A stretch of 64,000 nt of DNA from Candidatus Woesearchaeota archaeon (GTDB lineage Archaea; Nanobdellota; Nanobdellia; Woesearchaeales; WJIZ01). Position 1 is the first letter of the stretch; each line of letters starts with the position of its first letter. Position numbers and translations under genes: made by a program. Shown piece by piece: positions 1-37,354 of this stretch. The stretch is from assembly GCA_018221205.1 (NCBI GenBank), contig JAAOYF010000017.1, forward strand, positions 863 to 64,862, in the 5' to 3' direction. The notes under the pieces are model-generated. The model had not been told where the DNA came from. It did not search any database and saw only the letters and a program-made list of their open reading frames with translations.

Positions 1-352
1 CATGTCCTTTTCTAAGGTGAGGAAGGATTGCTTTGACGACTTTCTCCATCTGTGTAAGGTCTGGCACAAAATCAAAATCTAAAGGGGTGCCAGGAACAAT
101 GATGAGATACTCAGAATCATATATCTTTTTATCATCGGTTGTACAGGTAAAATTTCCTTCCTTCAGGACCTGCTCAAGAATAGGCTGGGCATGGGGCTCG
201 ATGAATGGCATCTTTCCCTTACAGACCATATCGACAGCAATCTCATTGATATCGAGTGCGACAACATCCTTCTTCTTCTTTGCAAAAGACAATGCTAAAG
301 GCAGACCGACATGCCCACATCCCCCTACAATACAAACATCATGCTTGAACAT
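1..352 (-). CDS. UDP-sugar dehydrogenase family (UDP-ManNAc/UDP-Glc dehydrogenase-like), N-terminal part; gene runs off the window start
   Basis: Reverse-strand translation from ATG at 352-350 gives MFKHDVCIVGGCGHVGLPLALSFAKKK...DINEIAVD, a Rossmann GxGxxG NAD-binding N-terminus typical of WecC/Ugd-family dehydrogenases. No stop codon before position 1. It is not in the ORF track because it is truncated. Confidence 0.55.
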   Translation of the reverse strand, partial: MFKHDVCIVGGCGHVGLPLALSFAKKKKDVVALDINEIAVDMVCKGKMPFIEPHAQPILEQVLKEGNFTCTTDDKKIYDSEYLIIVPGTPLDFDFVPDLTQMEKVVKAILPHLRKGH

Positions 353-427
353 GTCAACAGTGAGAGTCAGGAAATTTATATATGTTTCGAAGATATGTTT
401 ATATATCTCCTTCATTTGCTCAGGGGG

Positions 428-1120
428 ATGATAAAGTTCAGCATAGTGATTCCCACATTCAATGAAGAGAAGCATATCAAGGGAACGCTGGAAAGAATCT
501 ATAGCAATCTCAAGAGACACAAACTGCAGGCTGAGATCATCATCGTAGACGACAGCACCGATTCTACACCAAAAATCATACGCTCTCTGAATCTCAAGGA
601 CCTCACCCTCATATACCGAAAAAAAGCGAGAGGTGTCGGCTCTGCGATCCGTGAAGGCATCTCTAAGGCAAAGGAAGAATATATCATTGTATTGATGGCT
701 GACGCACCTGATGATGTAAAATATCTTCCCAGTATGCTCAAGAGACTAGAGCAAGGCTATGATCTTGTCCAGACATCCCGTTTTTTTAAAGGCTGTAAAA
801 TGGAAGGTTATCCTGCAAAAAAACGTGTCTGCAACTGGCTCTGCAACAGCTTCATTAGGGTCTCCTTTTTAGAATTCAGGCTGAAGGATTTCAGCAGCTT
901 ATTCAAGGGATTCAATAGGAAAAAGATCCAAGATTTGAATCTGACAGCAAACGAATTCGATCTTGGACTCGAGATTGTCCTGAAGGCCATGAAAAGAAGA
1001 TATAAGATTATTGAAGTGCCTGTCAATTGGAAAGAACGGGAGACTGGTGAGAGCAAGCTGAAGTTATCAAAATATGCCAAGAACTATTTCTATCGGGTCA
1101 TGAAGATTTGGTTAAGCTAA
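428..1120 (+). CDS. Family-2 glycosyltransferase (DPM1-like dolichol-phosphate sugar synthase type)
   Basis: MIKFSIVIPTFNEE...IIVDDSTDST...ADAPDD motif set of the GT2 GT-A fold. Start taken at the internal Met (428) rather than the ORF-track start at 311. Confidence 0.75.
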   Translation: MIKFSIVIPTFNEEKHIKGTLERIYSNLKRHKLQAEIIIVDDSTDSTPKIIRSLNLKDLTLIYRKKARGVGSAIREGISKAKEEYIIVLMADAPDDVKYLPSMLKRLEQGYDLVQTSRFFKGCKMEGYPAKKRVCNWLCNSFIRVSFLEFRLKDFSSLFKGFNRKKIQDLNLTANEFDLGLEIVLKAMKRRYKIIEVPVNWKERETGESKLKLSKYAKNYFYRVMKIWLS

Positions 1121-1901
1121 GGATGTCTTCTTTATGCAATTCGAGCTCAGCACTTTTGAGATTCTCCTTCACATGCACTAAAGATCTGGATAAAGGGATA
1201 GTGACGACATTCTCCTGGCTGACCAACCAAGAAAGCGCGATCTGTGCATTCGTCACGCCATACTTCTGAGCAAGAGCAGATAATCGTGGATCATCCAATA
1301 ATCTCCCTCTTCCCAACGGCTTATAGGCAATGGTCATGATATCCTGTTTCTGGCAGAACGGTATCATCTCTCGGAGAGGTTCCTGGTGCTGTATATTGAA
1401 TTCTATCTGATGTGCTGCGATTGTATAGTACTGTTGGGCTTCTTTAAGCTGTTGAAGAGAGAAATTGCTCACGCCGATATGCTTTGCTTTTCCCATATCG
1501 ACAAGCTGTTTCATTGCATTCATGGTCTCTTTGAGTGGAATGTCTGGATTGGGCCAGTGGACAAGATAAAGATCGACATATTCTGTTCCGAGTCTTTGTA
1601 AGCTTCTCTCCATTGCAGAAATGACCCCCTCATATGAAAGATTGTCCTTCCATACTTTTGTTGTGAGAAAAAGTTTTCCTCTCTCAGAATATTGGATTGC
1701 TTTCCCGACGATCTTTTCAGCCTGGCCCTGCCCATAGTATTCTGCAGTGTCTATGTGTTCAACACCGGCAACAAGGGCATTCTTGATAAGGTCTATCTCT
1801 TCTTTCTCGTGAGAATCATCAAGTTCATGATCTCCTCCTATGCCCCATGTCCCCAGGCCTATGTCCGGGATGCGCATACTGCCGGCAGTTTTATACTTCA
1901 T
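1098..1901 (-). CDS. Aldo/keto reductase
   Basis: IPDIGLGTWG...IDTAEYYG...LYLVHWP AKR signatures. The start Met is ambiguous: Met15 (1901) or Met23 (1877). Confidence 0.75.
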   Translation of the reverse strand: MKYKTAGSMRIPDIGLGTWGIGGDHELDDSHEKEEIDLIKNALVAGVEHIDTAEYYGQGQAEKIVGKAIQYSERGKLFLTTKVWKDNLSYEGVISAMERSLQRLGTEYVDLYLVHWPNPDIPLKETMNAMKQLVDMGKAKHIGVSNFSLQQLKEAQQYYTIAAHQIEFNIQHQEPLREMIPFCQKQDIMTIAYKPLGRGRLLDDPRLSALAQKYGVTNAQIALSWLVSQENVVTIPLSRSLVHVKENLKSAELELHKEDILSLTKSS

Positions 1902-3096
1902 GAGGAGAAGGCAACGGTACGATGAACGTTCCCTTATATCCAAATTTTTTCAGTTTCGGAATCAGCTCTTCAGCGATATTCCAGGAAAGAAGCAGTGCAT
2001 AATCTGGCTGTTCATCAAAGAGCAGCTTCTCATCTCTTACAGGGATATGTCTTCCAGGAGTAAAAAGTCCTATCTTCAGTGTGCTTTTCTCGACAAGATA
2101 ATCTAAGACATCAGTATCGATGGCGCAGTAGTTCAAAAGGGTGTTTCCTTTTGCAGGTGCCCCTATACCTACAATTTTCTTTCCCTCTGCTTTGATGCGT
2201 CTGAGCATATTCTGGATCTTGAATTTATGCTCCCTTACTTTATCACCGAACGCAAGGTAGGTCGCTTTTTTATCAAGCCCTTTCTTCCGTTCCTCATCTA
2301 AGAGCTTCTGTAGGCGTTCTGTCTTCTCATAGCTTCCTTTCATGCTGACATACGTCCTGATTGAGCCTCCATGTGTAGGGACAGGTTCAGCATCAAAGAG
2401 CTCCAGGTCAAATTGATCGAACAGGCCCTGGAGTGAGAGCAGTGAATAATAACGAAGATGTTCATGATAGATAGAATCCCATTGCATCTTCGTAAGAAGA
2501 TTGAGAAGATAATGCGACTCCTGGATGAATATCCCTTTTTCTGAAAGCAGTTCTTTTATTCCTTTCATCAATGATGAAACATCTTTTACATGCGCAAACA
2601 CATTGGTCGCAGTGATTATTCTTGCTTTGCCCCTTTCTTTTACAATCTTCTTCGCCAACTCATGGGAAAAGAAATCATGGACCGTATCCACTCCATTTTT
2701 TATCGCAATCTCGGCGACACTGCTCGGATCCACCCCTAATATCTTCATCCTTCCTTCATATCCCTTCAGCAGTGTGCCGTCATTCGAGCCGATATCCACA
2801 GCCAGCTCTTCCTTCTCAGGAGAGAATCGCTGTAATGCCGTTTCCACTAACTCTTTGAAGTTTTTGATCAGGCTGTTGTTGCTGGAAGTGGTGTAGACAT
2901 AATCTCTGAACAAGATCTCAGGGTCAACAGCATAGCCAAGTTGGACAAGATAGCAATGTTCACAGAAAAAGACGTCTAAAGGAAAAGTGTTCTCTTCTTT
3001 ATTCAGCTCCTCTTCTTTGAGGAAGGCATCACTAGGTGCATGATGCCCTAATGAAAGGAATTTCGTTGTTTGTTTTCCGCAAAGCGTGCAGTTCAT
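1891..3096 (-). CDS. NDP-hexose C-methyltransferase (TylCIII/EvaC-like; N-terminal Zn-ribbon plus SAM methyltransferase plus C-methyltransferase C-terminal domain)
   Basis: MNCTLCGK..FFCEHCYLVQL (Zn ribbon), VDIGSNDGTLL (SAM motif I), NVFAHV, DSIYHEHLRYYSL, THGGSIR. These match the hallmark order of the sugar C-methyltransferase family. The ATG overlaps the upstream stop (ATGA). Confidence 0.8.
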   Translation of the reverse strand: MNCTLCGKQTTKFLSLGHHAPSDAFLKEEELNKEENTFPLDVFFCEHCYLVQLGYAVDPEILFRDYVYTTSSNNSLIKNFKELVETALQRFSPEKEELAVDIGSNDGTLLKGYEGRMKILGVDPSSVAEIAIKNGVDTVHDFFSHELAKKIVKERGKARIITATNVFAHVKDVSSLMKGIKELLSEKGIFIQESHYLLNLLTKMQWDSIYHEHLRYYSLLSLQGLFDQFDLELFDAEPVPTHGGSIRTYVSMKGSYEKTERLQKLLDEERKKGLDKKATYLAFGDKVREHKFKIQNMLRRIKAEGKKIVGIGAPAKGNTLLNYCAIDTDVLDYLVEKSTLKIGLFTPGRHIPVRDEKLLFDEQPDYALLLSWNIAEELIPKLKKFGYKGTFIVPLPSPHEV

Positions 3097-4040
3097 CGGT
3101 ACCACCCAACACATTTTTTCAATCCGCCTGATAAATCAACCTCTGGTTTCCATCCAAGTGCCTTAAGTTTTGTGATATCAGGGCATCTCCGCTCGACACT
3201 TCCTTCTGGAGCAGATTGCTCATCAATTTCCAGACTGACTTCCATGACTGAAAAAAGTTTCTTGGCCAAATCCATGATCTTGATCTCATCATCCGTACCG
3301 ATATGATACGTTTCCCCTTTCTTGCCTGATTCCATGACAAGTTGGGTGGCGCGGACCGCATCCTGTACATAGCAGAAAGCCCGTGTCTGCTTTCCACCGA
3401 AGATCTTGAATGGCTTTTCATTCTTCACCACACGTTCGATGAATTGGGGGATGACATGGTCATGCCCCATTCTTGGTCCATAGACATTATGATAACGGAC
3501 AATGGAATAATCGATATCATGATTCTTCGCATATGAATGAAAAGCGACCTCTCCTAATATCTTTGAAGCCCCATAGCTCCACCTCACATTAGTGGGATCT
3601 TCAACAATCAAAGGGACATGTTCTGGAGTAGGAAGCGGAAAATCAGGCAGAAGTTTCAAACCTGCACTATAGGCCTCAGAGCTCGAAGTGAAAACAATCT
3701 TTCCTTTCTTGCCGATGATCCAGTCAAGGAGGTTAATTGTGCCCAAGGTATTCACTCTGAGCACCTTTTCAGGGATCTTATAGAAATTTCCTGTGCCGTT
3801 GATGGCTGCAAGATGATAGATATAATCATAATCAGTGTCTAGCTGGCTGAATGCTTCCGTTGTGGTGATATCAGCCTTGATAAAACCCACATTCTCTTGA
3901 GAAATCAGGGTATCGAACTCTTTGTCTTTCTCTGCCCTGCCGAAATTATCAAGAATATCGACCTGCATGCCTTGTTCTGAAAGGTGTGAAGCTAGATGCA
4001 GCCCGACAAAGCCTGCTCCCCCAGTAACTAGTGCTTTCAT
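3093..4040 (-). CDS. NAD-dependent sugar epimerase/dehydratase (extended SDR)
   Basis: [14 protein letters not shown]-terminus and YGASK catalytic YxxxK motif. Confidence 0.8.
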   Translation of the reverse strand: MKALVTGGAGFVGLHLASHLSEQGMQVDILDNFGRAEKDKEFDTLISQENVGFIKADITTTEAFSQLDTDYDYIYHLAAINGTGNFYKIPEKVLRVNTLGTINLLDWIIGKKGKIVFTSSSEAYSAGLKLLPDFPLPTPEHVPLIVEDPTNVRWSYGASKILGEVAFHSYAKNHDIDYSIVRYHNVYGPRMGHDHVIPQFIERVVKNEKPFKIFGGKQTRAFCYVQDAVRATQLVMESGKKGETYHIGTDDEIKIMDLAKKLFSVMEVSLEIDEQSAPEGSVERRCPDITKLKALGWKPEVDLSGGLKKCVGWYR

Positions 4041-4128: not shown

Positions 4129-4830
4129 ATGAGTATTTACGACGATACAGGTGAAGAATCATTAAACGTCCTGAAGGATTCTAAGATTAACAAATACCAG
4201 TATAGTAGCATCAGAAAATTCGTCGGGAAACGCGTCTTGGAGATTGGCAGCGGAATAGGGAATATCAGCCAGTATATCCTCAAGGATAAGAAGCAGCTCG
4301 TCGTTCTTTCTGATATTTCCCCAGATTATATCAAGCAGCTGAAGAAGACATTTCCGAAGAAAGCGAAGTTTGAAGTGTATGATTTAGAGGATAAAAAGAC
4401 CGAGAAGTTCAAGAAGCATCGTCTGGATACTATCATCTGTCTCAATGTCCTCGAACATGTGAAGAATGATAGGCAGGCATTGAAAAATCTCTATAATATC
4501 TTGATTAAAGGTGGAAAACTGATACTCCTTGTACCCTCTCTCAGATTTCTCTATGGGGCACTGGACAAGAACTTAGGCCATTTCCGTAGGTATGAAACAG
4601 GAGAGGTAGTGAAGAAACTAAATCAGGCTGGATTTACTATAGAAAAGAGATATTTTATGAACGGGCTCGCCATACCCGGGTGGTGGTGGCAAGGTAAGAT
4701 TATGAAGAAGAAAGCAGTGAGTCAGGGAGATTTGAAACTCTATGATGCATTCTTTCCCCTGATCAGCCTTTTCGAGAGATTCATCCGGCCATTTATTGGG
4801 TTGTCCATTATCTGTATCGCAAAAAAATGA
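4129..4830 (+). CDS. Class I SAM-dependent methyltransferase
   Basis: VLEIGSGIGN (motif I) ... LNVLEHV ... GGKLIL (Methyltransf_11/23-like). Confidence 0.7.
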   Translation: MSIYDDTGEESLNVLKDSKINKYQYSSIRKFVGKRVLEIGSGIGNISQYILKDKKQLVVLSDISPDYIKQLKKTFPKKAKFEVYDLEDKKTEKFKKHRLDTIICLNVLEHVKNDRQALKNLYNILIKGGKLILLVPSLRFLYGALDKNLGHFRRYETGEVVKKLNQAGFTIEKRYFMNGLAIPGWWWQGKIMKKKAVSQGDLKLYDAFFPLISLFERFIRPFIGLSIICIAKK

Positions 4831-6479
4831 AATTGAAACTGAATGCCATCCTAGAGGTCATGTTCCTTGCACTAGTTCTGGGAATGGTGCTTTATGCTGC
4901 GCTTGGCCCGCTTTGGCAGCAAAAGATAAAGCACGATTTCCCGACCGGTTATTTTGCTTCGGATACCTTCATCCACCTCACCTTCGCAGAAGAGATAAAA
5001 GAAAGGGGCCATTATCGTTATTATCCCTCCTATATGGCATGGGGATTTGATGATGTTATCGGCCATTATCCCCCTATTATCCATCATCTTGCTGCACTCT
5101 TCTCGCTCACAAGTTCGCTCCAGACCTATGATACAATCCTCCTCATGCTTGCTGTCCTTATTGCGCTTTCTATAGGGACATTATATTTCATCCTGAAGAA
5201 ATACAACAAGAACATCGCACTGATGTCATTGCCTCTATCTCTATTAGTTTTTACAGGAAAGGCGACAATAGGGTTCAATTGGGGACAATGGGGGTACCTT
5301 ACTGGTGCTGCATTCCTTATAGGGGTATTTTGGGCAGTCACTCAGCTTGATGTAAAACATTCATACATCCTTCTTGGATTATTTATCGGGATAGATGCTC
5401 TTGCTCACACCTCTGAAGCCATGATGGGTGTGCTCTTCACTCTCCTGTATATAGGTATTAAGCTTATCATTCGCAAGGGAACAAAAGAGAATATCTTTGA
5501 TGTCGTGAAAGCTGGAATAATTGCAGCCGTCATTTCAGGGTATTATCTTATTATTTTCTACTTCACGTGGTTCGCAGCAGAGTTCGAGATTAAAGTGACA
5601 AAGACACTGGTAAGCTTCGGCGTGCAAGATACTGCAGTGAGAATGGATATTTTTGGGTTCTTTTTGCCCCTCGTTATTATTGGTATGGTAGTAGCAGCAT
5701 TGTTCATCATAAGGAAAAAGATCAATGTTGCCTCCCTTATGGGATTCTTCATGCTGCTTATGGGCTACAGCTATCTTTTGGGAGCTGGAAGACGTGCTAC
5801 TCAGGCACGAATCTTTTGGCCGCTTTACCTCGCGGTCTTTCTCGGCATCACCCTGTATTTTGGGTTGAGGATCATCATAAGGAAATGGAGCATCATCTAT
5901 TCATATGCTATTGGTATAATCCTGCTTATGGTAATATTTACCCAATTCTACACGCCTAATCATTCACCAGGCCTGATGAACAATGAGCATTGGCAGTATT
6001 TCCAATGGGCAAGAGAAAACCTGCCAGAAAATAGTGAGGTATTTTACTTTTATAGTGATACGTGGATGCAGAATGCTATGCTCTACTTGGACCAAAGGAA
6101 TTCCTTCATCACTTCCCAATCATTTTTAGGAGAATCGTTGCAGAACAGGACTATTCCTCGTGAGTTCCGAGGAAAAATGGTAACTGAAGGGGGAGCCAGG
6201 CTTCCCTACAGAAAGGGCCTTTTTTCCTATGGATACCATAGTGAAGAAGTAGATAAATCTCCTTTTGTTGGATCGTTTGATATATGTAAATATGATTTTT
6301 ATGCTTTTGACAAGTTCAGTGCAGTGCCTGTATTGGCGCAATATAACCTGCTTATACGTCAGCAGTTGCTTCAAAACAGTTACATGGAAGAAGTGTATGC
6401 CAATAACTTGGTGACTGTATTGAAGAATAACAATCCAAGCGAGGATTGTCTGCCAAGGGAAGGTGTAGTCTTTGTATAA
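4827..6479 (+). CDS. Polytopic integral membrane protein, GT-C-like (putative Dol-P-sugar-dependent glycosyltransferase) with a C-terminal soluble domain
   Basis: At least 10 predicted TM helices followed by a ~150-aa hydrophilic tail. ATGA overlap with the upstream methyltransferase. No WWDYG motif, so it is not AglB. Confidence 0.45.
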   Translation: MKLKLNAILEVMFLALVLGMVLYAALGPLWQQKIKHDFPTGYFASDTFIHLTFAEEIKERGHYRYYPSYMAWGFDDVIGHYPPIIHHLAALFSLTSSLQTYDTILLMLAVLIALSIGTLYFILKKYNKNIALMSLPLSLLVFTGKATIGFNWGQWGYLTGAAFLIGVFWAVTQLDVKHSYILLGLFIGIDALAHTSEAMMGVLFTLLYIGIKLIIRKGTKENIFDVVKAGIIAAVISGYYLIIFYFTWFAAEFEIKVTKTLVSFGVQDTAVRMDIFGFFLPLVIIGMVVAALFIIRKKINVASLMGFFMLLMGYSYLLGAGRRATQARIFWPLYLAVFLGITLYFGLRIIIRKWSIIYSYAIGIILLMVIFTQFYTPNHSPGLMNNEHWQYFQWARENLPENSEVFYFYSDTWMQNAMLYLDQRNSFITSQSFLGESLQNRTIPREFRGKMVTEGGARLPYRKGLFSYGYHSEEVDKSPFVGSFDICKYDFYAFDKFSAVPVLAQYNLLIRQQLLQNSYMEEVYANNLVTVLKNNNPSEDCLPREGVVFV

Positions 6480-6855
6480 AGTAAAAAATGAATTAACAGG
6501 TCTAGGATTCTCCTTTATCATAGTATTCATAATATTCAAGATCGCCTTTTGGCAAGAAACCTTTTCTACTGTACTGAGAACTGTCCTTGCCTTCTATTGG
6601 CTGTTTATCCTTCCGGGTTTTGCTCTTCTCTCCAATTGGCAAGATACTTTCTCTTTTGTTGAACGCTTTATAGTGGGGGCGCTTTTGGGAGGAGGACTAG
6701 TGGCGTTGATAAGCTATTATCTGGGCATCAGTGGATTGCATATCAGATATCACATATGGATACTGCCTCCTCTGCTCATCATCATTGGGCACTCCAGAAA
6801 ACTCATTTCTTTCTTAAGAAATAGGCCAAAGCAGACAGAGCCGCAAAAACAATAA
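6472..6855 (+). CDS. Small integral membrane protein (3-4 TM), function unknown
   Basis: The ORF is hydrophobic throughout and overlaps the upstream gene end. Confidence 0.35.
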   Translation: MYKVKNELTGLGFSFIIVFIIFKIAFWQETFSTVLRTVLAFYWLFILPGFALLSNWQDTFSFVERFIVGALLGGGLVALISYYLGISGLHIRYHIWILPPLLIIIGHSRKLISFLRNRPKQTEPQKQ

Positions 6856-7117
6856 CAACAACCATCCTGAATGAAAATAATCTTCCTGGCCAGTAGGTGA
6901 GCGCTGGAAACAGGGCAAGGCCGATAAAGATGGAATAGATCGCTTTCTCCCCCTGGCTGAGATTGAAAGTATCAAGGATGAAGTAAAAAGGAATAATGAT
7001 GATGATCCATCCCAAGAAAGTAAGCGATCCGCTCATCCCGAAGAAGATGAGTCCGAACAGTGCAAAGAGGATAGCAACAATGCCGATTGTGGTCTTTTCA
7101 TTTAACGCAAGTTTCAA
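6803..7117 (-). CDS. Small integral membrane protein (3 TM)
   Basis: Hydrophobic ORF. It overlaps the stop of the upstream 515-aa membrane protein gene by 4 nt (7114-7117), with its ATG nested in that overlap. Confidence 0.4.
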   Translation of the reverse strand: MKLALNEKTTIGIVAILFALFGLIFFGMSGSLTFLGWIIIIIPFYFILDTFNLSQGEKAIYSIFIGLALFPALTYWPGRLFSFRMVVVIVFAALSALAYFLRKK

Positions 7118-8661: not shown

Positions 8662-8706
8662 ACAGTCATGGGCATATGCCGAGTTAATAAAGATTTCCCT
8701 GACCGG

Positions 8707-28976: not shown

Positions 28977-29540
28977 ATGGCTTTACTTTCAACCTATTTA
29001 CGTCACCAACGTCTCAATCGTACACGACAATTCGTGAAGCAAGGTTTGCTGGAAGGAGATGTGCTTGATATTGGCTGTTGGGATGCAGAATTGCTGCAGT
29101 TCATCAAGCCAAAAAAGTATGTCGGGATTGATATTGAAAAGGAAAAGATCATAAAGAACAAGAAAAGATATCCGCAGCATGAGTTCTACATTATGGATCT
29201 AGAAAAAGACCCATTTCCACCTATCCAAAAAGTGGACACCATAATCCTCACCGCAGTCATCGAACATATCAATAATACAGGAAATTTCTTCTCTCAACTG
29301 CACAAAGTATTAAAAAAGCAAGGTAACTGTCTCATTACAACACCTACTCCGATAGGAAACTGGCTCCATGGCCTAGCTTCAAAGATCGGCTTGATGAGCA
29401 AGGAAGCAGCGCATGAGCATGTAAGCATCTACAATATCAAGAAGATGAAAAAAGAATGCCAAAATTACGGTCTGAGAGTAAAGAGACATAAAAGATATCA
29501 GGGCGGATTGAATCAATACTTTATTGTGGGTATAAAATGA
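28977..29540 (+). CDS. Class I SAM-dependent methyltransferase
   Basis: VLDIGCWDAELL...ILTAVIEHI...QGNCLITTP. Confidence 0.65.
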   Translation: MALLSTYLRHQRLNRTRQFVKQGLLEGDVLDIGCWDAELLQFIKPKKYVGIDIEKEKIIKNKKRYPQHEFYIMDLEKDPFPPIQKVDTIILTAVIEHINNTGNFFSQLHKVLKKQGNCLITTPTPIGNWLHGLASKIGLMSKEAAHEHVSIYNIKKMKKECQNYGLRVKRHKRYQGGLNQYFIVGIK

Positions 29541-30403: not shown

Positions 30404-31329
30404 AGCTGACGATAGTTAAGGTGTTGATAAGCATCATTTTAATTGGAGTTGTTATGTATGTCATTGGATTGCAGGAGATTGCCCAAAGTGCGATGCAGAT
30501 AGGTGTCATTCCTTTGCTTATTGCTCTGGTGATAATCCTTCTGGTAATGGTGCTCTTTGCAGTAAGAATGTATGTATTGGTAAGGGCAGTCAAGAGGATT
30601 CCATTCAAGACAGTGTTCAGGGATGCTGTTGCAGCTCTTTGTTTAGGTACATTTTCTCCGGGAAAGATAGGTGAGCTCTCTTTTGTCTATTCTCTCACAA
30701 AAGAGAAAGTGCCGGCTGGCTCTGCAAGCGCGATTTTCATCATTGATAGGGTAAATTCTCTTCTGACCATCGCATTCTTTGCTTTGCTAGGTGTTTTCGT
30801 CATAACTCCCCTGAAGCAGAATCTCTGGCTTATTGTCCTCATTATTGTGCTGCTGATCACAGGGGCATTTATGGTGACATCAAGAAAAGGGATTTCTATC
30901 ATAAAAAAATTGCTGATGAGGTCGATAAGGGAGAAATTTGTGGGCTATACGAAAGCAATGAAAAAAATGAAGGGTTTTGCCTACATCGAGAATCTTGCGC
31001 TGAATATACTGAACATCATCATACGGTCTATTGCGATATTCATTCTCCTGCTGTCGTTGAAAGAGCAGGTTCCATTCATCTTATTGGTGGCAGTGAATGG
31101 CATTATGACTCTTGCATCTTTGATACCCATCAGCCTGAGCGGCCTTGGTGTCCGTGAGGGCGGTGCTATCCTCTTGCTCCATTTAGCGGGCCTTGGTAAA
31201 GAGAATGTTGCTGTCGCGTATATATTCATATCTCTTGCCACCTATGTTTTCTCTGCAATCCTGCTCCTTTTTTTTGTCAAAACCAAAAAGTCTATTAAAC
31301 CCTCTCAGTTAATGAAAAAGAATGGTTAA
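30400..31329 (+). CDS. Flippase-like membrane protein (lysylphosphatidylglycerol-synthase TM-domain family)
   Basis: Eight TM helices. It sits immediately downstream of, and overlapping, a GT2 gene (ATGA). Confidence 0.5.
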   Translation: MKLTIVKVLISIILIGVVMYVIGLQEIAQSAMQIGVIPLLIALVIILLVMVLFAVRMYVLVRAVKRIPFKTVFRDAVAALCLGTFSPGKIGELSFVYSLTKEKVPAGSASAIFIIDRVNSLLTIAFFALLGVFVITPLKQNLWLIVLIIVLLITGAFMVTSRKGISIIKKLLMRSIREKFVGYTKAMKKMKGFAYIENLALNILNIIIRSIAIFILLLSLKEQVPFILLVAVNGIMTLASLIPISLSGLGVREGGAILLLHLAGLGKENVAVAYIFISLATYVFSAILLLFFVKTKKSIKPSQLMKKNG

Positions 31330-32389
31330 GATCGCTATTATTTTAGGGACACGGCCTGAGATCATAAAGATGTCTCCGGTCATCAGAGAATGCATCAGAA
31401 GAAAAACAGACTTTTTTATCTTGCATAGTGGCCAGCATTATTCCTATCGTATGGATGCGAAGTTCTTTGAGGATTTGGAATTGCCTTCTCCTAGATATAA
31501 TCTCAATGTAGGCTCTTCGAGCCATGCCGCCCAGACAAGCGACATTTTGGCAAAGACAGAAAGGATACTCCTTAAAGAAAAGCCCGATGTTGTCCTAGTG
31601 CAAGGAGATACCAATACTGTATTGGCTGGGGCGCTTGCTGCTGCCAAGCTGCATATTCCTGTCGGCCATATTGAAGCAGGTCTGAGAAGCGGAGATAAGA
31701 ACATGCCCGAAGAGATCAATAGGATCATGGCTGACCACTGTTCTGATTTCCTTTTCGCTCCGACAGTGGAGACAAAGAAAAACCTGAAGAAAGAAAACAT
31801 CACGTCAAAGATCATTGTGACAGGAAATACGATTGTCGATGCTGTCCAGCAATCCCTGAAGATCAGCAAAAAGAAATCAAAGATAATGGGCGCCTTAAGA
31901 TTGAAAAAGAATAGGTTCATGCTCCTCACCCTGCACCGGCAGGAGAACGTGGACAATAAGGCACGATTAAAGCAGATTCTTTCAGGAATCCAAAAGATCC
32001 ATGATCAATTCAATCTATTGATAATCTATCCAATTCATCCCCGGACAAAGAAGAGGATACAGCAGTTCAAGCTGAAAATGCCTAAAGGTGTGAAACAGAT
32101 CAGACCCATAGGCTTCCTTGACTTCCTTCAGTTGGAGAGCAATGCCGCTTTGCTCTTGACTGACAGCGGAGGAGTGCAGGAAGAGGGCTGTATCCTGAAA
32201 GTGCCTTGCGTCACGATACGCGACAGTACAGAACGCCCAGAGACCGTGCAAGTGAAAGCAAATACCATAGCAGGTCATAATCCCAAGAATATTCTGAAGA
32301 GTGCAGAAAAAATGTTTTCAGTGAAGAGGATATGGAAAAATCCATTCGGAAAAGGGGATGCAGGAAAAAGAATTCTTAATTCCTTTTGA
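31322..32389 (+). CDS. wecB: UDP-N-acetylglucosamine 2-epimerase (non-hydrolysing)
   Basis: MVKIAIILGTRPEIIKMSPVI...LHSGQHY...VQGDTNT...GHIEAGLRS. Confidence 0.85.
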   Translation: MVKIAIILGTRPEIIKMSPVIRECIRRKTDFFILHSGQHYSYRMDAKFFEDLELPSPRYNLNVGSSSHAAQTSDILAKTERILLKEKPDVVLVQGDTNTVLAGALAAAKLHIPVGHIEAGLRSGDKNMPEEINRIMADHCSDFLFAPTVETKKNLKKENITSKIIVTGNTIVDAVQQSLKISKKKSKIMGALRLKKNRFMLLTLHRQENVDNKARLKQILSGIQKIHDQFNLLIIYPIHPRTKKRIQQFKLKMPKGVKQIRPIGFLDFLQLESNAALLLTDSGGVQEEGCILKVPCVTIRDSTERPETVQVKANTIAGHNPKNILKSAEKMFSVKRIWKNPFGKGDAGKRILNSF

Positions 32390-33497
32390 ACTGTTCACAT
32401 ATCTTCACTATTTTCTCCGCATTGATAGGCCAGTCGCATTCCTTCAGAACAAATTTTCTTCCTCGACCCGTAATTTCTTTACGGAGTGTGGCAGATTCAA
32501 GCAATCTGATGATGCTTTTCCCTAAATCATCTGCATCTCCTGCGCTAAAGATTAATGCCCTCTTTGTATCGCCTACTTCTCGCATCATTCCATTCAGATC
32601 CGGTGCGATAAAGGGAAGCTCCATAGCCATGTATTCATATCCTTTCAGCGGAAGGCAGATATCGGTGGCAAGGCTCCGAAGGTGGGTGACCAATCCTACT
32701 TTTGCCTGTGCGAGTATGGGTGGAATATTATGATGGGGTGTCCATCCTTTGAACACAAAATGTTTTTCCAGGCGCAGTCTCTTGACAAGCTGCCGTAGGT
32801 TCTCGAAGTCCCTACCATCTCCTATGATGATAAATGTCATTGTCGGAAATTTCTTCAGGACTTGTTGAGCAGCGTAAGGAATGAGCAATGTTCCGTCATG
32901 CGGTTCAACACCTCCCATATACACAACCATTTCCTTCCTTTTTCCTTTCCGTGGCCCGAACAGTTTCAGATTGACGCCGTGGCGGACAATGGTGATATTG
33001 TGCACATTTCGCTTGCGGAGCTGCCGCTTCAGCTCAGAATACGCTGCGATGACTTTATCAGAATGCCTCGCGACATAACACTCAAGCAGCGGTCCATACT
33101 TTTCAACCAGCTTATATTTTGATAAGCCCATAGTAAAATCATCAATATCATACACTAAAGGCACTTTCTTTAGTTTAGAATAGATGAGTGAAGGGAATGC
33201 GCTGACAACATTATGTGCTAAGACAATGTCTGCTTTACGTTTTCTCAGTTCTTTGAAGATTCGCAGCCCTGTCTTTAGATAGACCCACTCCTTTTTCTTG
33301 ACAAATCGTGATACCTTGCCGATATTCACCAAAGTAGCTTTTGGAAACTCTTTCTCAACCCCTTTCAGTGAAAGAAATGGTGCAATGACCGTAACGTCAT
33401 GCTTCCTCTCCAATAATTTCTTGACAATCCAATAGACTCTCAGCCCTCCCCCTCCTCGTAAAGGCCAGAAGCTGTCATGTGATACAACAATGATGTT
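32376..33497 (-). CDS. GT4-family glycosyltransferase
   Basis: MNIIVVSHDSFWPLRGGGGLRV N-terminus and GT-B C-terminal domain. Confidence 0.75.
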   Translation of the reverse strand, partial: NIIVVSHDSFWPLRGGGGLRVYWIVKKLLERKHDVTVIAPFLSLKGVEKEFPKATLVNIGKVSRFVKKKEWVYLKTGLRIFKELRKRKADIVLAHNVVSAFPSLIYSKLKKVPLVYDIDDFTMGLSKYKLVEKYGPLLECYVARHSDKVIAAYSELKRQLRKRNVHNITIVRHGVNLKLFGPRKGKRKEMVVYMGGVEPHDGTLLIPYAAQQVLKKFPTMTFIIIGDGRDFENLRQLVKRLRLEKHFVFKGWTPHHNIPPILAQAKVGLVTHLRSLATDICLPLKGYEYMAMELPFIAPDLNGMMREVGDTKRALIFSAGDADDLGKSIIRLLESATLRKEITGRGRKFVLKECDWPINAEKIVKICEQFKRN

Positions 33498-33512
33498 CAT
33501 AATGATCAAAAA

Positions 33513-34445
33513 CTAAGTGAGATTTTTAAAATATTCTATTGTATGCTTGAGACCTTCCTCCAATTCAATCTTCGGTTCCCAATTAAGATGCTTTTTTGCA
33601 AGTGAGATATCTGGCTTGCGTTGGATAGGGTCAGCCGCATGTAATTCTTTATTGATAGGTTTTGATTTTGATCCGGTTAAATGGATGATCTTCTCTGCTA
33701 GTTCTAGAATAGTGAACTCATCTGGATTGCCTAGATTAACCGGCCCGATAGCCTTAACTTGATTCATCATAGCAACCATCCCATTGATAAGATCAGCAAC
33801 ATAACAAAAGCTTCTTGTCTGTTTGCCATCGCCATAAATGGTGATGTCTTTGTCTGCCAAAGCCTGAGAAATGAAATTTGAGACCACTCTTCCATCATTC
33901 CTCGCCATCCTCGGCCCATAAGTATTGAATATCCTGACAACCCTGATATCCAGTTTATGCTGACGGTGATAATCAAAGCAAAGCGTCTCCGCACATCTCT
34001 TCCCTTCATCATAGCATGCCCGTATGCCTATGGGATTGACATTGCCCCAATAACTCTCCTTTTGGGGATGCTCTTTCGGATCACCATAGACTTCCGATGT
34101 GCTTGCCTGCAGCATTCTTGCATTATGCTTCTTTGCCAGGCCGAGCATGTTGATTGTCCCTAGGACGTTCGCCTTGATGGTGCGGATGGCGTTGAATTGG
34201 TAATGGACTGGGGATGCCGGACAGGCAAGATTATAGATCTGGTCGATGTTCTCCTCAATAGCTAGGGGATCGATGATATCATGATTCATCATTGTGAAGT
34301 TTGGATTTTTCTTGAGGTGCTCTATATTCTTCTCATTTCCGGTGAAGAAATTATCGACGCAGATAACTTTATTCTCCTTGATAAGAACATCGCACAGATG
34401 GCTCCCTAAGAAACCAGCTCCCCCAGTGACAACGATCGTCTTCAT
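33513..34445 (-). CDS. uxs: UDP-glucuronate decarboxylase (UDP-xylose synthase)
   Basis: [19 protein letters not shown]...CVDNFFTG...[19 protein letters not shown]. Confidence 0.85.
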
Positions 34446-35164
34446 GAGAGGAACTCCTTCTCTGCAAGCTCTAATTGCTCGAGTGAACCGATATCAAACC
34501 ATTTTTTCTTGACTGGATAGCCGAAAACATCCTCTTTTGTATACAGCCACTCCAAGAAATCTCCTGCTTTGTCGCTTTTTTGGGTTGAATCGAGGAATTC
34601 GATGAGCTTTTGTATGGTTTGGGCAGGATAGAAGTAAACTCCTGTTGAAGAGAGGGTGGATCTTGGCTCTTGAGGCTTCTCTTCGAAATGGACAATCTTT
34701 CCGTTCTCGGCTATCGAGACTATTCCATAGAGTTTCGCTAGTTCCTTGTTCTGGACATCATAGAGCGCGACCACATTGTTCCTTTTTTCCTTGAAGTAAG
34801 AGTAGATCTCTTCCAGACCGAATTCAAAGAGATTATCTCCTGCGACAATAAGTAAATCCTCATTGAGGGAAAACTTGTCGATGACAAACCGGATATCTCC
34901 TAATGAACCGAGCCTGTCATCATTTGACATGGTGAGGTCATTCACGATAGTGATCGGCTTTGCTATGCTTTTCTTCCACTCCTCGAAATGGGAAAAGAAC
35001 TTATTGTTCGTAACAACATAGATATGATCGACTTCTTGAGGTATCTTCTCGATGATATAGTTGATGATCAGCTTTCCTTTGACATCAAGAAGAGGTTTTG
35101 GTTTGTCCTTAGTAAGAGGATATAGCCTGGTGGCATACCCTGCAGCAAGAATGATTGCTTTCAT
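34442..35164 (-). CDS. Sugar-1-phosphate nucleotidylyltransferase (short NTP_transferase)
   Basis: [26 protein letters not shown]. Confidence 0.7.
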
Positions 35165-36462
35165 CCTCTTCCTACCCCTACATAAGTGAAACCTTTCTTT
35201 CGCATCTCCCTCGGTTCATAGACATTCCTCCCATCTATCACTATGGGCTGTTTCATCAATGATTTTATCTTATCCTTATCCAGATCCCTGAACTCATTCC
35301 ATTCAGTGACGATGACCAATGCATCCACCTCCTCTAATGCTTCATAAGGTGTCTTTGTATACGTAATATCAGAGAGCATCTTCTTCGCCGTGTCCTCTGC
35401 TTCAGGATCAAAAGCGATGATCTCTGCCCCCTCTTTCTGCAGTTGCTCGATGATAACGATAGAAGGTGCTTCCCTCATATCATCTGTCTTCGGCTTGAAC
35501 GCCAATCCCCATATCGCGATCTTCCTCCCCTTCAGATCAGGAACTAACTTTTTTATCTTAGGCAGCAATGATTTTTTTTGTTCTGTATTCACTTTATCCA
35601 CTGCCCACAGTATCTGCCCTTCGACATTGTGGTCAAGCATAGTCTCCCTGAAGGCTGCGACATCTTTCGGAAAGCAGCTTCCCCCATATCCTACTCCTGC
35701 TTGAAGGAATCTCGTCCCTATACGTGTATCAAGTCCCATCCCCTTGGCAACTGCCTTGACATCAGCTCCGACCTTCTCGCACAATTGCGCGACTTCATTC
35801 ATGAAAGAGATCCTTGTTGCGAGCATTGCGTTGCTTGCGTACTTGATCATCTCAGCACTTTTGACATCAGTGAAAAGTATGGGTTTGTCTGTCCTCACAA
35901 CTCCCCTATATATCTCTTCCATTACTTTTTGTGCTTGTTCTAATTCTGTCCCCACAACAATCCTGTCTGGATTGGTGAAATCTCCTATTGCCTCTCCTTC
36001 GCGAAGAAATTCAGGGTTTGAGATGACATCAAAAGGGATCTCCCTCTTCTGGTGTTCACGGATGATGATGGCCACTCTCTCTGCAGTCCCTACCGGAACA
36101 GTGCTTTTGTCGATGACAACCTTATACTCATCCATATATGTACCTATGTCTTTAGCGACTGCATATATTGCTGTCAGATCTGCCTCGTGATTGGCTCCAG
36201 GAGGTGTTCCTACAGCTATGAAGATTGCCTTGGACTCATGTATAGCGTCCTTGATGGATGTGGTGAAGATTATCCTATCCTCTTTCTGATTGCGCTTGAG
36301 CATCTCTGCCAGGCCCGGCTCGTAGATAGGCACCTTGCCTTCATTCAGCATCTCCACTTTGGCCTTATCGATATCGGCACAGATGACATCATTGCCCAGA
36401 TCTGCTAAGCAGACCCCTGCTACCAGACCGACATATCCTGTTCCTATGACTGCGATTTTCAT
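35161..36462 (-). CDS. ugd: UDP-glucose 6-dehydrogenase
   Basis: MKIAVIGTGYVGLVAG...GGSCFPKD (catalytic Cys). Confidence 0.85.
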   Translation of the reverse strand: MKIAVIGTGYVGLVAGVCLADLGNDVICADIDKAKVEMLNEGKVPIYEPGLAEMLKRNQKEDRIIFTTSIKDAIHESKAIFIAVGTPPGANHEADLTAIYAVAKDIGTYMDEYKVVIDKSTVPVGTAERVAIIIREHQKREIPFDVISNPEFLREGEAIGDFTNPDRIVVGTELEQAQKVMEEIYRGVVRTDKPILFTDVKSAEMIKYASNAMLATRISFMNEVAQLCEKVGADVKAVAKGMGLDTRIGTRFLQAGVGYGGSCFPKDVAAFRETMLDHNVEGQILWAVDKVNTEQKKSLLPKIKKLVPDLKGRKIAIWGLAFKPKTDDMREAPSIVIIEQLQKEGAEIIAFDPEAEDTAKKMLSDITYTKTPYEALEEVDALVIVTEWNEFRDLDKDKIKSLMKQPIVIDGRNVYEPREMRKKGFTYVGVGRG

Positions 36463-36483
36463 ACAGCCGGATAGAGAAAGATG

Positions 36484-36522
36484 CTTTAAATATCTTACCA
36501 CTATCCTACCTTATCCGATATG
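36484..36522. promoter_or_regulatory. Divergent promoter with two TATA boxes (gctttaaatatc and tttatatac)
   Basis: Each box sits 24-38 nt upstream of its start codon (36462 minus, 36552 plus). Confidence 0.45.
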
Positions 36523-36551
36523 TTTATATACATATAATCTCTCCTATAAAC

Positions 36552-37349
36552 ATGAAAAGAAAGATCTCTGTGACGATCGATCAGGTCCTGCTCAAAGGAA
36601 TAGATTCCATTGTTGATAATATCTACATCAGAAACAGGAGCCAAGCCATCGAGCACTTGGTGAACCTTGCCTTAGGAGAGCATAAGACTGCTGTTATCCT
36701 TGCTGGTGGGCCCGAGGGGAAGATAAAGATAGACCGGAAGTTCAGGCCGACTGTGCAAGTCAATAAGAAAGCAGTCATAGAACGCGCTGTTGAGAGGTTA
36801 AGAGGGTCTGGCTTCAAGAATATCTATATCATCGCCCGACAGAATGTGCTTACGCAGATCTTCAATATCATAAAGGACGGCTCGATGTTCGGGGTAAACA
36901 TCAATTATGTTGAGGAGAAGAAGGCCACCGGGTCAGCAGATTCCTTGAGGCTCATAAAAGGTAAGGTAGACAATGATTTTCTGGTGGTCTATGGTGATAT
37001 ACTCTTCAAGAAGATTAATTTAGATGAGCTTTGGAACGATCATCTGAAGAATAATGCTATTGCCACGATGATGATGACCACTTCTTCAAGGCCCTCAGAG
37101 AAGGGTACCCTGCGTGTAGAGGGCAGTAAGGTGCTGACCTTCACCCAGAAACCGAAGGAATCTGACATCTATCTGGTATTCTCCCCCATATTTATCGCTA
37201 CGCCCGAACTTCTTGATTACCCAGGAACAAGCCTTGAGCGCAATATCTTCCCAGTATTGGCCTCGAAAGGCCTCTTGAATGGCCACCTAAGCTCAGAGAA
37301 AGAGCTCCATATACATACTACATCTGATGTGAGAAAACTGGAGAAGTAA
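36552..37349 (+). CDS. Ribbon-helix-helix (CopG-like) DNA-binding domain fused to a nucleotidyltransferase-like domain; putative regulator
   Basis: The N-terminal 45 aa (KISVTIDQVLLKGIDSIV...NRSQAIEHLVNLAL) are RHH-like. The rest is an NTP_transferase fold (AVILAGG..., GSADSL, VVYGDIL). Its G-loop lacks the canonical GxGTRL. Confidence 0.6.
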   Translation: MKRKISVTIDQVLLKGIDSIVDNIYIRNRSQAIEHLVNLALGEHKTAVILAGGPEGKIKIDRKFRPTVQVNKKAVIERAVERLRGSGFKNIYIIARQNVLTQIFNIIKDGSMFGVNINYVEEKKATGSADSLRLIKGKVDNDFLVVYGDILFKKINLDELWNDHLKNNAIATMMMTTSSRPSEKGTLRVEGSKVLTFTQKPKESDIYLVFSPIFIATPELLDYPGTSLERNIFPVLASKGLLNGHLSSEKELHIHTTSDVRKLEK

Positions 37350-37354
37350 AAAGG

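Follow-up and report, generated by a model that had tools for sequence, protein, structure and literature searches.

The window discussed here is a stretch of 64,000 nucleotides from a metagenome-assembled genome (MAG) of a Candidatus Woesearchaeota archaeon (assembly GCA_018221205.1, contig JAAOYF010000017.1, positions 863 to 64,862 of the forward strand). Positions 1-37350 are occupied by a contiguous block of genes for surface-glycan biosynthesis, referred to below as the island. The island has 38 of the 65 plausible open reading frames (ORFs) of the window, at a coding density of 98.7%, and 36 of these 38 consecutive ORFs belong to glycan-biosynthesis families, an enrichment far above chance. 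(The two exceptions, at 6472-6855 and 6803-7117, are small proteins with three or four transmembrane (TM) helices and no family match.) The genes lie in 14 alternating strand blocks of one to seven genes each. On the left, the island is open at the window edge, inside a gene for a nucleoside diphosphate (NDP)-sugar dehydrogenase (2-352, minus strand); on the right, it ends at a 5S rRNA gene. Every ORF was scanned against Pfam, and key ORFs also against NCBIfam and PDB sequences. In the following list, GT is glycosyltransferase, SDR short-chain dehydrogenase/reductase, SAM S-adenosylmethionine and aa amino acids.

g01, 2-352, minus: NDP-sugar 6-dehydrogenase, WecC-like, N-terminal 117 aa, cut by the window edge (UDPG_MGDP_dh_N 77 bits)
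g02, 311-1120, plus: GT2, polyprenyl-phosphate-sugar-synthase-like (Glycos_transf_2 92.5 bits)
g03, 1098-1943, minus: aldo-keto reductase, candidate NDP-ketosugar reductase (Aldo_ket_red 232 bits)
g04, 1891-3114, minus: NDP-sugar 3-C-methyltransferase, TylC3/TcaB9 type (Methyltransf_13, Methyltransf_23, Methyltransf_14)
g05, 3093-4040, minus: SDR, dehydratase/decarboxylase-like, C-methyltransferase partner (Epimerase 165 bits)
g06, 4129-4830, plus: class I SAM methyltransferase (Methyltransf_12, _23, _11)
g07, 4827-6479, plus: polytopic protein, ~9 TM, weakly GT-C-like (DUF6541 E 1.1e-5, 24.4 bits, below cutoff 29)
g08, 6472-6855, plus: small TM protein, 3-4 TM, 127 aa, downstream of g07
g09, 6803-7117, minus: small TM protein, 3-4 TM, 104 aa, downstream of g10
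g10, 7114-8661, minus: DUF6541-family GT-C-type glycosyltransferase (DUF6541 44.5 bits, cutoff 29; PMT_2 E 3.2e-4)
g11, 8630-9523, plus: RfbF, glucose-1-phosphate cytidylyltransferase (TIGR02623 305.6 bits, just above cutoff 300.25)
g12, 9487-10491, plus: NDP-hexose 4,6-dehydratase, RfbG-like (TIGR02622 207.5 bits, below cutoff 278.45)
g13, 10464-11147, plus: GT2, AglJ/Dol-P-hexose-synthase-like (Glycos_transf_2 66 bits; AglJ model 129 bits, below cutoff)
g14, 11136-12398, minus: GT9-like, N-terminal TM anchor (Glyco_transf_9, PF01075, 74.6 bits, cutoff 22)
g15, 12431-13483, plus: SDR, CDP-tyvelose 2-epimerase-like (117 bits to 9rl0, 114 bits to 1orr)
g16, 13480-14595, plus: SDR, GalE-like epimerase with internal insertion (Epimerase/GDP_Man_Dehyd match in two pieces)
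g17, 14592-15296, plus: GT2, polyprenyl-phosphate-sugar-synthase-like (best PDB matches Pyrococcus furiosus DPMS 5mlz, GtrB 5ekp, ArnC)
g18, 15282-16793, minus: GT-C-fold membrane glycosyltransferase by structure model, no Pfam family of its own
g19, 16778-17671, minus: Rmd, GDP-6-deoxy-D-lyxo-4-hexulose reductase (236 bits to 2pk3, 196 bits to 6x3b)
g20, 17668-18630, minus: Gmd, GDP-mannose 4,6-dehydratase (TIGR01472 455 bits, cutoff 415)
g21, 18706-19719, plus: GT4 (Glycos_transf_1 125 bits, Glyco_transf_4)
g22, 19765-20337, plus: class I SAM methyltransferase (Methyltransf_23, _11; 54% identical in locus L033)
g23, 20319-21353, plus: GT4 (Glyco_trans_1_4 78 bits)
g24, 21340-22758, plus: Wzx/MOP-family lipid-linked-oligosaccharide flippase (Polysacc_synt 102.7 bits, cutoff 28.2)
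g25, 22831-23985, plus: GT4 (Glycos_transf_1 80.6 bits)
g26, 23970-24650, plus: CDP-alcohol phosphotransferase, membrane protein (CDP-OH_P_transf, PF01066, 52 bits, cutoff 22)
g27, 24643-26520, plus: AsnB-family glutamine-dependent amidotransferase (TIGR01536 489 bits, cutoff 267; Asn_synthase, GATase_7)
g28, 26517-27020, minus: cytidylyltransferase, GCT/ECT/CCT family (CTP_transf_like 79.7 bits)
g29, 27059-28909, minus: polytopic protein, ~10 TM, weakly PMT_2/GT-C-like (PMT_2 E 6.5e-5, 23.6 bits, cutoff 26.1)
g30, 28977-29540, plus: class I SAM methyltransferase (Methyltransf_23 64.7 bits)
g31, 29537-30403, plus: GT2, AglJ/DPMS/ArnC-like, two C-terminal TM helices (AglJ model 174 bits, below cutoff 325)
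g32, 30400-31329, plus: MprF-type "flippase-like" protein, 8 TM (LPG_synthase_TM 102 bits, cutoff 33.4; TIGR00374 76 bits, cutoff 43.2)
g33, 31322-32389, plus: WecB, non-hydrolysing UDP-GlcNAc 2-epimerase (TIGR00236 424.7 bits, cutoff 210)
g34, 32376-33509, minus: GT4 (Glycos_transf_1 70.9 bits, Glyco_transf_4 58.5 bits)
g35, 33513-34445, minus: UXS, UDP-glucuronate decarboxylase (397 bits, E 5e-118 to human UXS1, 4gll/2b69)
g36, 34442-35164, minus: sugar-1-phosphate nucleotidylyltransferase, AglF/RmlA/GlmU-N-like (NTP_transferase 137.5 bits; all NCBIfam equivalogs below cutoff)
g37, 35161-36501, minus: UDP-glucose 6-dehydrogenase, Ugd/AglM-like (three UDPG_MGDP_dh domains)
g38, 36552-37349, plus: nucleotidyltransferase with ~45-aa N-terminal extension (NTP_transferase 68.6 bits, residues 47-223)
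37354-37469, minus: 5S rRNA gene (Rfam RF00001 69.5 bits, gathering score 38)

The island belongs to the genome in which it is found. Its tetranucleotide usage correlates with that of the rest of the window at r 0.97 (each 8-kb chunk at r 0.95-0.97), its codon usage with that of the flank at r 0.92, and the GC content at third codon positions (GC3) is slightly higher, ~0.49 against ~0.44. A chimeric assembly, a concern raised in a preliminary description of this DNA, is rejected on this uniform composition, and the scan of every ORF with hidden Markov models upheld both the block itself and most of the family calls made there. A mobile island is likewise rejected, as the window has no tRNAs and no integrase or transposase families, and a repeat scan gave only short matches at chance level. 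Genes for RadA, RPA, Taw1, Dph2 and a fused primase lie in the flank and mark the host as a DPANN archaeon; the archaeal assignment is further confirmed by exact protein matches to a Candidatus Woesearchaeota MAG.

What sugars could such an island supply? The preliminary description proposed four nucleotide-sugar pathways and the epimerase of a fifth. The GDP-6-deoxyhexose route is confirmed: Gmd and Rmd are both identified and their genes are adjacent, with an overlap of 4 nt, giving GDP-D-rhamnose. The best match of Rmd is the enzyme of the S-layer GDP-D-rhamnose pathway of Aneurinibacillus thermoaerophilus, where the likeness includes the adjoining Gmd; that pathway, however, is bacterial, and the comparison covers Rmd and Gmd only. 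The UDP-xylose route is equally well founded, with Ugd and UXS at one site (33513-36501) and one nucleotidyltransferase between them; Ugd scores 481 bits on an NDP-sugar dehydrogenase model (cutoff 190), 561 bits on the TuaD model and 413 bits on the AglM model. For the CDP-hexose route, RfbF is above its cutoff and the SDR epimerases are present, but the dehydratase g12 falls short of the cutoff for CDP-glucose 4,6-dehydratase (RfbG), even though this is its best match (the dTDP-glucose dehydratase model gives 189.6 bits). The best PDB match of the GalE-like g16 is the UDP-glucose 4-epimerase 4zrm. UDP-ManNAc can be expected from WecB. The suggested partnership of WecB with the dehydrogenase at the window edge is not supported, on the other hand: the two genes are 31 kb apart, and that type of dehydrogenase sits in another cassette in a related locus (see below). 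There are seven SDRs in the island. The last gene, g38, has generic sugar-1-phosphate nucleotidylyltransferase matches in NCBIfam, and its N-terminal extension (MKRKISVTIDQVLLKGIDSIV...) appears to resemble a ribbon-helix-helix DNA-binding domain.

The cassette at the left edge (g01 and g03-g05) probably makes a branched sugar. The methyltransferase g04 has the full TylC3/TcaB9 architecture, consisting of PF08421 (a Zn-ribbon), PF13489 (the SAM methyltransferase domain) and the C-terminal PF08484, and matches the D-mycarose 3-C-methyltransferase 4rv9 over residues 8-405 with 290 bits (E 2.8e-85) and TcaB9 with 241 bits. Its homologues, at 55-68% identity, are found in Woesearchaeota and in bacteria of the candidate phyla radiation. 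The edge dehydrogenase is closer to the WecC model (70 bits) than to the Ugd-type TuaD model (43 bits), and g05 has below-cutoff matches to dTDP-glucose dehydratase, UDP-4-keto-pentose/UDP-xylose synthase and ArnA models. In another Woesearchaeon (locus L035), the order dehydrogenase-SDR-C-methyltransferase-aldo-keto reductase is colinear, the proteins being 40%, 59%, 56% and 43% identical to g01, g05, g04 and g03, respectively, and a GT2 that is 55% identical to g02 lies nearby; no RfbF or RfbG is found within 10 kb of that cassette. Because the cassette is colinear in L035 without RfbF/RfbG nearby, the C-methyltransferase most likely belongs with the edge dehydrogenase, the g05 SDR and the aldo-keto reductase, rather than demonstrably with RfbF/G. 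This assignment departs from the RfbF/G link of the preliminary description. The route possibly runs via a UDP-4-keto intermediate. The TylC3, TcaB9 and EryBIII pathways for actinomycete antibiotics use the same three-domain 3-C-methyltransferase, also with an aldo-keto reductase and an SDR, but the island has no 2,3-dehydratase or aminotransferase, and its context is that of an envelope glycan rather than a secondary metabolite. The nucleotide carrier of the 3-C-methyl sugar is probably UDP or CDP, not dTDP.

A CDP-alcohol pair is present as described, whereas the designation of its cytidylyltransferase as TagD, with glycerol specificity, is doubtful. The TagD model TIGR01518 (cutoff 165) gives g28 a score of 92 bits, and among PDB sequences an ethanolamine-phosphate cytidylyltransferase (85.5 bits) is a better match than TagD (71 bits). 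It has the HIGH motif, and its second signature reads YTQGVSST (in TagD, the two are HxGH and RTEGISTT). Since g28 matches the ethanolamine enzyme better than TagD, and is below the TagD cutoff, CDP-glycerol is only one of several possible products. In its membrane-bound partner, g26, the catalytic motif D(x)2DG(x)2AR...G(x)3D(x)3D is intact at residues 78-103 (DIIDGHLARITDKKSKFGGLFDGISD, starting at residue 78); the closest PDB match of g26 is AF2299 (4o6m), and its best NCBIfam matches, below their cutoffs, are phosphatidylinositol phosphate (PIP)- and archaetidylinositol-phosphate-synthase models. The possibility that g28 is an orthologue of RfaE domain II that feeds the GT9 enzyme was considered and rejected, given its CCT/ECT/GCT-type signature and a lower score on the RfaE-II model (77 bits) than on TagD. 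By contrast, a genuine RfaE-II, from the related locus L034, scores far better on the RfaE-II model (170 bits) than on the TagD model (39.5 bits).

Further tailoring enzymes include the AsnB-type amidotransferase, well above its cutoff as predicted, and SAM methyltransferases. Five of the latter had been counted, but only four are inside the island. The fifth is an FkbM-family methyltransferase, a type common in glycan O-methylation, whose gene lies past the 5S rRNA gene, that of a membrane protein and that of the primase:

39941-40678, plus: FkbM-family methyltransferase (112 bits), outside the island

The glycosyltransferase families were also named correctly, although not their number: instead of about eleven, there are nine of the Leloir type, namely four GT2s, four GT4s and one GT9. 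All four GT2s resemble polyprenyl-phosphate glycosyltransferases best (AglJ, Dol-P-hexose transferase, ArnC, PpgS, PgfS, DPMS, GtrB). AglJ or Dol-P-hexose transferase is the top or second NCBIfam match for each of them, at 70-174 bits, below the cutoffs of 325 and 375. The best NCBIfam matches of g02 (AglJ, Dol-P-hexose transferase and ArnC) are all below cutoff, and g17 matches PgfS, AglJ and Dol-P-hexose transferase. The best full-length PDB matches of g31 are DPMS and ArnC, and a TM scan places at residues 228-286 the C-terminal hairpin that is typical of GtrB and ArnC. The GT9-like g14 is the most widely conserved protein of the island. Its best 120 matches are 49-68% identical and 357-432 aa long (most ~404); they are mostly from Woesearchaeota and Nanoarchaeota, with Aminicenantes and Cloacimonetes bacteria at 52-55%. 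It is not equivalent to WaaC, WaaF or WaaQ, as its best match among these models, heptosyltransferase II, gives 83 bits (cutoff 134.6), and only its C-terminal half (residues 248-372) aligns to WaaF (1psw). Genes for ADP-heptose (GmhA, HldE/RfaE, GmhB) are absent from the 64-kb window.

Four polytopic proteins of GT-C type were found where four or five had been suggested, two of them (g07 and g29) on weak evidence. The clearest by fold is g18, whose polytopic N-terminal module is of GT-C fold and bears an acidic residue in its first outside loop; the structure model matches the folds of ArnT, AftA, AftD and PimE, with the protein-directed GT-Cs STT3 and PMT as equally close neighbours. The DUF6541 protein g10 is 41-56% identical in five related loci, where it usually adjoins the GT9 gene, and its co-match with PMT_2 suggests that DUF6541 belongs to the GT-C clan. 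At 31-34% identity, g07 is kept beside the DUF6541 gene in L025, L032, L033 and L034. Alignment of the g18 family profile to g07, g10 and g29 with hhalign gave no significance.

The two small TM proteins, g08 and g09, each follow one GT-C-type gene and converge with a 53-nt overlap at their 3' ends. Proteins of similar size occur beside GT-C genes in L025 and L034 (for g08) and after the DUF6541 gene in L028 and L033 (for g09). They may be flippase subunits or accessory subunits of the GT-Cs. Neither has a Pfam or NCBIfam match even at E 0.1, including the GtrA and SMR models, and because there is no family match, a GtrA/ArnEF-like role stays conjecture. Both Wzx and the LPG-synthase-type flippase-like protein of the preliminary description are above their Pfam cutoffs. 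The matches of g24 to Wzx_EPS and MurJ models are weak; g32 comes directly after the GT2 g31, and members of its family lie within ~5 kb of a GT2 in the L025, L028 and L032 clusters.

How widespread is this arrangement? Relatives were found by a primase anchor and by island-protein anchors, and gene counterparts were sought with tblastn. In GTDB genomes and JGI metagenomes, the primase anchor gave 24 related loci (40-57% identity), without a strain-level relative in these collections, and none of the loci shares a neighbour with the window; because of this, the position of the island beside the primase and 5S rRNA genes is not conserved at this distance. Homologues of g18 and of the GT9 protein in other Woesearchaeota and Nanoarchaeota contigs, on the other hand, lie inside similarly dense glycan clusters. 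Certain elements recur in these as a core: the GT9-like protein, at 50-66% identity; the DUF6541 GT-C, at 41-56%; small TM proteins, one or two in number; and, at 31-34%, a polytopic protein of ~550 aa. Frequent companions of the core are Gmd (71-77%; L028, L032, L033), Rmd and the GT4 g21 (52-56%; L033, L034). L025 also holds counterparts of g15, g16, g17 and g18 (74%, 54%, 57% and 50%) and of g13, the last at 47% (47-50% in L025 and L028). Gene order is rearranged, and in the window the GT9 gene is parted from the GT-C block by RfbF-RfbG-GT2.

Around this core the periphery is variable. Within 10 kb in the relatives, tblastn found no counterpart of RfbF/G, AsnB, the CDP-alcohol pair, g29, g30, g32, g34 or g38, and none of the C-methyl cassette except in L035, at the end of which is also the only (and partial) match to Wzx. 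The periphery of the relatives has instead DegT aminotransferases, B12-radical SAM enzymes, GDSL esterases, NeuB and others. The B12-binding radical SAM enzymes lie beside g18-type GT-C, GT2 and flippase-like genes (L028 1132-6104 and 11600-14627, L032 7965-9347, L029 11506-12939), a hint that these glycans may also be C-methylated by radical chemistry or modified in some other way. The claim that the island is unusual for an archaeon is not supported, with at least seven other Woesearchaeota and Nanoarchaeota contigs carrying comparably dense clusters and shared cassettes. Given such clusters in relatives, and generic annotations that the genes already have in the public MAG, the island is a typical feature of its lineage and not a new kind of system. 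As for the term "super-island", the dense contiguous block is real, but 14 short strand blocks and a conserved core with a variable periphery argue against a single product.

Taken together, the island is quite likely a chromosomal, modular envelope-glycan locus of Woesearchaeota that works in two compartments, with a lineage-conserved core and variable accessory modules. In the cytoplasm, it would make GDP-D-rhamnose (Gmd, Rmd), UDP-GlcA and UDP-Xyl (nucleotidyltransferase, Ugd, UXS), UDP-ManNAc (WecB) and CDP-glucose-derived 6-deoxyhexoses (RfbF and the RfbG-like, TyvE-like and GalE-like SDRs). The dehydrogenase, SDR, TylC3-type C-methyltransferase and aldo-keto reductase would add a 3-C-methyl branched sugar from an NDP-4-keto intermediate, and a CDP-alcohol carrying glycerol phosphate or ethanolamine phosphate would be made as well. 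At the inner face of the membrane, four GT4s and the membrane-anchored GT9-like enzyme would build a polyprenyl-phosphate-linked oligosaccharide, which O-methyltransferases and the AsnB-type amidotransferase may modify and which Wzx would flip. Meanwhile, the four AglJ/DPMS/ArnC-like GT2s would load single sugars onto polyprenyl phosphate, to be flipped perhaps by the MprF-type protein or the small TM proteins. Outside, four GT-C-type transferases would add the flipped sugars, and the CDP-alcohol phosphotransferase a phospho-alcohol substituent. What the analysis shows directly are families, folds and synteny; from these we infer which lipid serves as carrier, in what order the steps run, what the flippases do, how GT2s pair with GT-Cs and where the glycan is finally attached. 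The assembly on a dolichyl or polyprenyl carrier that was originally suggested is plausible in view of the four GT2s, the four GT-C-type enzymes and Wzx.

There are precedents for such a pathway logic in AglJ, AglD, AglR and AglS of Haloferax, ArnC and ArnT, the Gtr system, and PPM and GT-Cs of mycobacteria. With ArnC/ArnEF/ArnT, GtrB/GtrA/GtrC and mycobacterial Ppm1 plus PimE/Emb/Aft, the island shares GT2s that match ArnC, GtrB and DPMS structures, g18 with its predicted likeness to ArnT, AftA, AftD and PimE, small TM proteins after two GT-C genes, and a flippase-like protein after a GT2. Unlike them, its proteins fall by sequence in none of these families, and the small TM proteins miss the GtrA and SMR models.

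Several points weigh against this two-compartment scheme. The one-to-one pairing of GT2s and GT-Cs rests on counts and adjacency. Two of the presumed GT-Cs, g07 and g29, are only weakly GT-C-like (Pfam scores below cutoffs, hhalign not significant), and a single-sequence AlphaFold2 model of g29 is unusable (pLDDT 45.6). For five SDRs out of seven, and likewise for g36, g38 and the cytidylyltransferase, the assignment goes as far as the family. As for the GT9 donor, an ADP-heptose-type route adjoins the core in L034 and not here. In addition, the 64-kb window has no AglB/STT3, no initiating phosphoglycosyltransferase of WecA/WbaP type and no Wzy/Wzz, so initiation and final transfer are without an assigned enzyme.

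What, then, is the product? It is possible, though on balance unlikely, that the whole block makes one elaborated N-glycan on dolichol, which an AglB encoded elsewhere transfers to the S-layer or to the pilin-like proteins at 54-64 kb. In Haloferax volcanii, the Agl system comprises the GT2s AglJ and AglD, AglF and AglM, the methyltransferase AglP, the flippase AglR, the Dol-P-Man transferase AglS, and AglB. The island mirrors many of these parts, with AglJ/Dol-P-hexose-matching GT2s, an AglM-like Ugd beside an AglF-like nucleotidyltransferase, an AglR-like Wzx-family flippase, SAM methyltransferases, and Dol-P-monosaccharide-type donors presumably used outside by the GT-Cs; AglS is an archaeal precedent for a GT-C enzyme that uses a Dol-P-sugar after flipping. 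At least seven proteins of the window, moreover, have an N-terminal KKG/KAQG and hydrophobic stretch of the archaeal class III signal-peptide type and are candidate acceptors. Yet no STT3 match was found among the 65 ORFs, and the WWDxG motif is absent from g07, g10, g18 and g29, from which it follows that AglB is not in the window; the N-glycan or S-layer target of the preliminary description is accordingly unsupported. All Agl equivalog scores are below cutoff, and the island has many more sugar routes than Agl, four GT-Cs rather than one, a GT9 and a CDP-alcohol module. To our knowledge, at least five donor routes and 13 transferases exceed the needs of any characterised archaeal N-glycan, and the 14 strand blocks and the pattern of core and periphery argue for several modules or products.

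Alternatively, the conserved core might build a membrane-anchored lipoglycan or glycolipid, in the manner of inner-core heptosylation of lipopolysaccharide (LPS) followed by periplasmic extension as in phosphatidylinositol mannosides (PIM), lipomannan (LM) and lipoarabinomannan (LAM). Its base might be an inositol- or glycerol-phosphate lipid that the CDP-alcohol phosphotransferase supplies. This we consider unlikely. Characterised GT9 enzymes act mostly on lipid acceptors, and in a bacterial (Aminicenantes) contig, L031, the GT9 orthologue (51% identity) adjoins a GT-C of the GT87 (PimE) family. In L034, a TARA contig from a marine Woesearchaeon, the core has next to it, at 19360-21227, genes for a PfkB kinase and for a protein that joins RfaE-II (heptose-1-P adenylyltransferase) to GmhB (heptose-bisphosphate phosphatase), with scores of 170 and 176 bits that narrowly miss the cutoffs, implying a putative ADP-heptose-type sugar in an archaeon, and the synthase matches of g26 also point to an inositol-phosphate lipid. 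All of these model matches, however, are below equivalog cutoffs; g26 is not kept beside the core in relatives; the ADP-heptose genes are absent from this window; g18 is just as near in structure to STT3 and PMT; and no lipoglycan is reported for Woesearchaeota in the literature searched.

A broader form of the same idea would have the GT9 cassette itself (GT9-like protein, DUF6541 GT-C, one or two small TM proteins and second polytopic protein) represent a so far uncharacterised system for an envelope glycoconjugate, either ancestral to Woesearchaeota, Nanoarchaeota and some uncultivated bacteria or often passed between them, with a product that could be a heptose-containing lipoglycan or "core" oligosaccharide carrying lineage-variable sugars. 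Although this is a long way from probable, the product would, if so, correspond in archaea to the LPS inner core or to PIM/LAM. The literature searched (on DUF6541, archaeal GT9/ADP-heptose and glycan clusters of DPANN and Woesearchaeota) held no description of the GT9/GT-C cassette or of the dehydrogenase-SDR-C-methyltransferase-aldo-keto reductase cassette.

It is most improbable that a recent horizontal transfer brought in the island as a bacterial-style locus for a capsule or exopolysaccharide of the Wzx/Wzy type. Wzx is present, GC3 is slightly raised, and there are close bacterial homologues of the C-methyltransferase (55-60% to Parcubacteria) and of the GT9 protein (52-55% to Aminicenantes/Cloacimonetes); the likeness to Gram-negative LPS and O-antigen loci extends to RfbF, the RfbG-like protein, the CDP-tyvelose-2-epimerase-like SDR and Gmd with Rmd (compare the common antigen of Pseudomonas aeruginosa). 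But the host is an archaeon without lipid A, and the island has none of the Wzy, Wzz, WaaL or initiating transferase families (no Pfam match to Wzy_C, Wzz, Wza, Bac_transf or Glycos_transf_4, PF00953, among its 38 ORFs). Unlike WaaC and WaaF, its GT9 is of a distinct ~400-aa subfamily with an N-terminal TM helix. For the GT9 protein, g18 and the C-methyltransferase, the nearest homologues are archaeal (65-68% identity), the tetranucleotide composition is that of the flank, and mobility genes and flanking repeats are missing. Finally, an assembly or binning artefact joining unrelated contigs, to which a MAG known by composition and homology evidence is in principle open, is hardly credible given the uniform composition, three island proteins that are 100% identical to one 67,594-bp Woesearchaeota contig at NCBI (one tag GOV09_02255), and independent MAGs and metagenome contigs that hold the same cassettes.

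The proposed modular two-compartment locus takes its place among dense, variable glycosylation clusters that are already known in archaea, including DPANN, and it overturns nothing. A life attached to hosts is assumed for DPANN archaea, and their surface chemistry may decide which hosts are bound. For one Woesearchaeon, the island now provides a concrete inventory of parts, verified for the most part: D-rhamnose, xylose, ManNAc(A), a CDP-hexose branch, a 3-C-methyl sugar, a phospho-alcohol substituent and four lipid-linked-sugar/GT-C modules. The recurring GT9/GT-C cassette, apparently undescribed, is a sensible target for comparative genomics and heterologous biochemistry. In Haloferax, one glycosylation cluster is conserved while a second is highly variable (PMC11407970), and for a nanoarchaeon it has been stated that surface glycosylation may take up ~10% of the proteome (PMC6142677).

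Some features of the region to the right of the island may be added. The 5S rRNA gene stands alone directly after the last glycan gene, with no 16S or 23S rRNA gene in the window, and beyond it, after a membrane protein and ahead of the FkbM gene, is the primase:

38461-39918, plus: PriS-PriL primase fusion (DNA_primase_S and DNA_primase_lrg, 485 aa)
43260-47480: IspG (380 bits) and IspH (303 bits), flanking an SQS/PSY-family prenyl synthase
48806-50133, minus: thymidylate synthase ThyA and DHFR, adjacent with a 4-nt overlap
54083-63982, minus: ten consecutive ORFs, including a 994-aa protein, without significant Pfam match

The relatives of the primase at 40-57% identity are from Woesearchaeota and Nanoarchaeota MAGs, although several of the records bear the title "uncultured Methanosarcinales archaeon" and are probably mislabelled. 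IspG and IspH are the terminal enzymes of the bacterial-type methylerythritol phosphate (MEP) pathway, which is already documented in some Woesearchaeota (PMC8421398), and their region adjoins an FAD-dependent, geranylgeranyl-reductase-like protein. They could provide isoprenoid precursors for the polyprenyl carrier. ThyA and DHFR make up a thymidylate cycle of bacterial/eukaryotic type in a DPANN archaeon. There are two long non-coding gaps, 51979-52593 (615 bp) and 62821-63269 (449 bp), in a region that is otherwise 98% coding, and neither has an Rfam family at gathering score. Among the ORFs at 54083-63982, those with the KKG/KAQG motif resemble proteins with class III (type IV pilin-like) signal peptides, and may be pilus or adhesion proteins and acceptors of the glycans.

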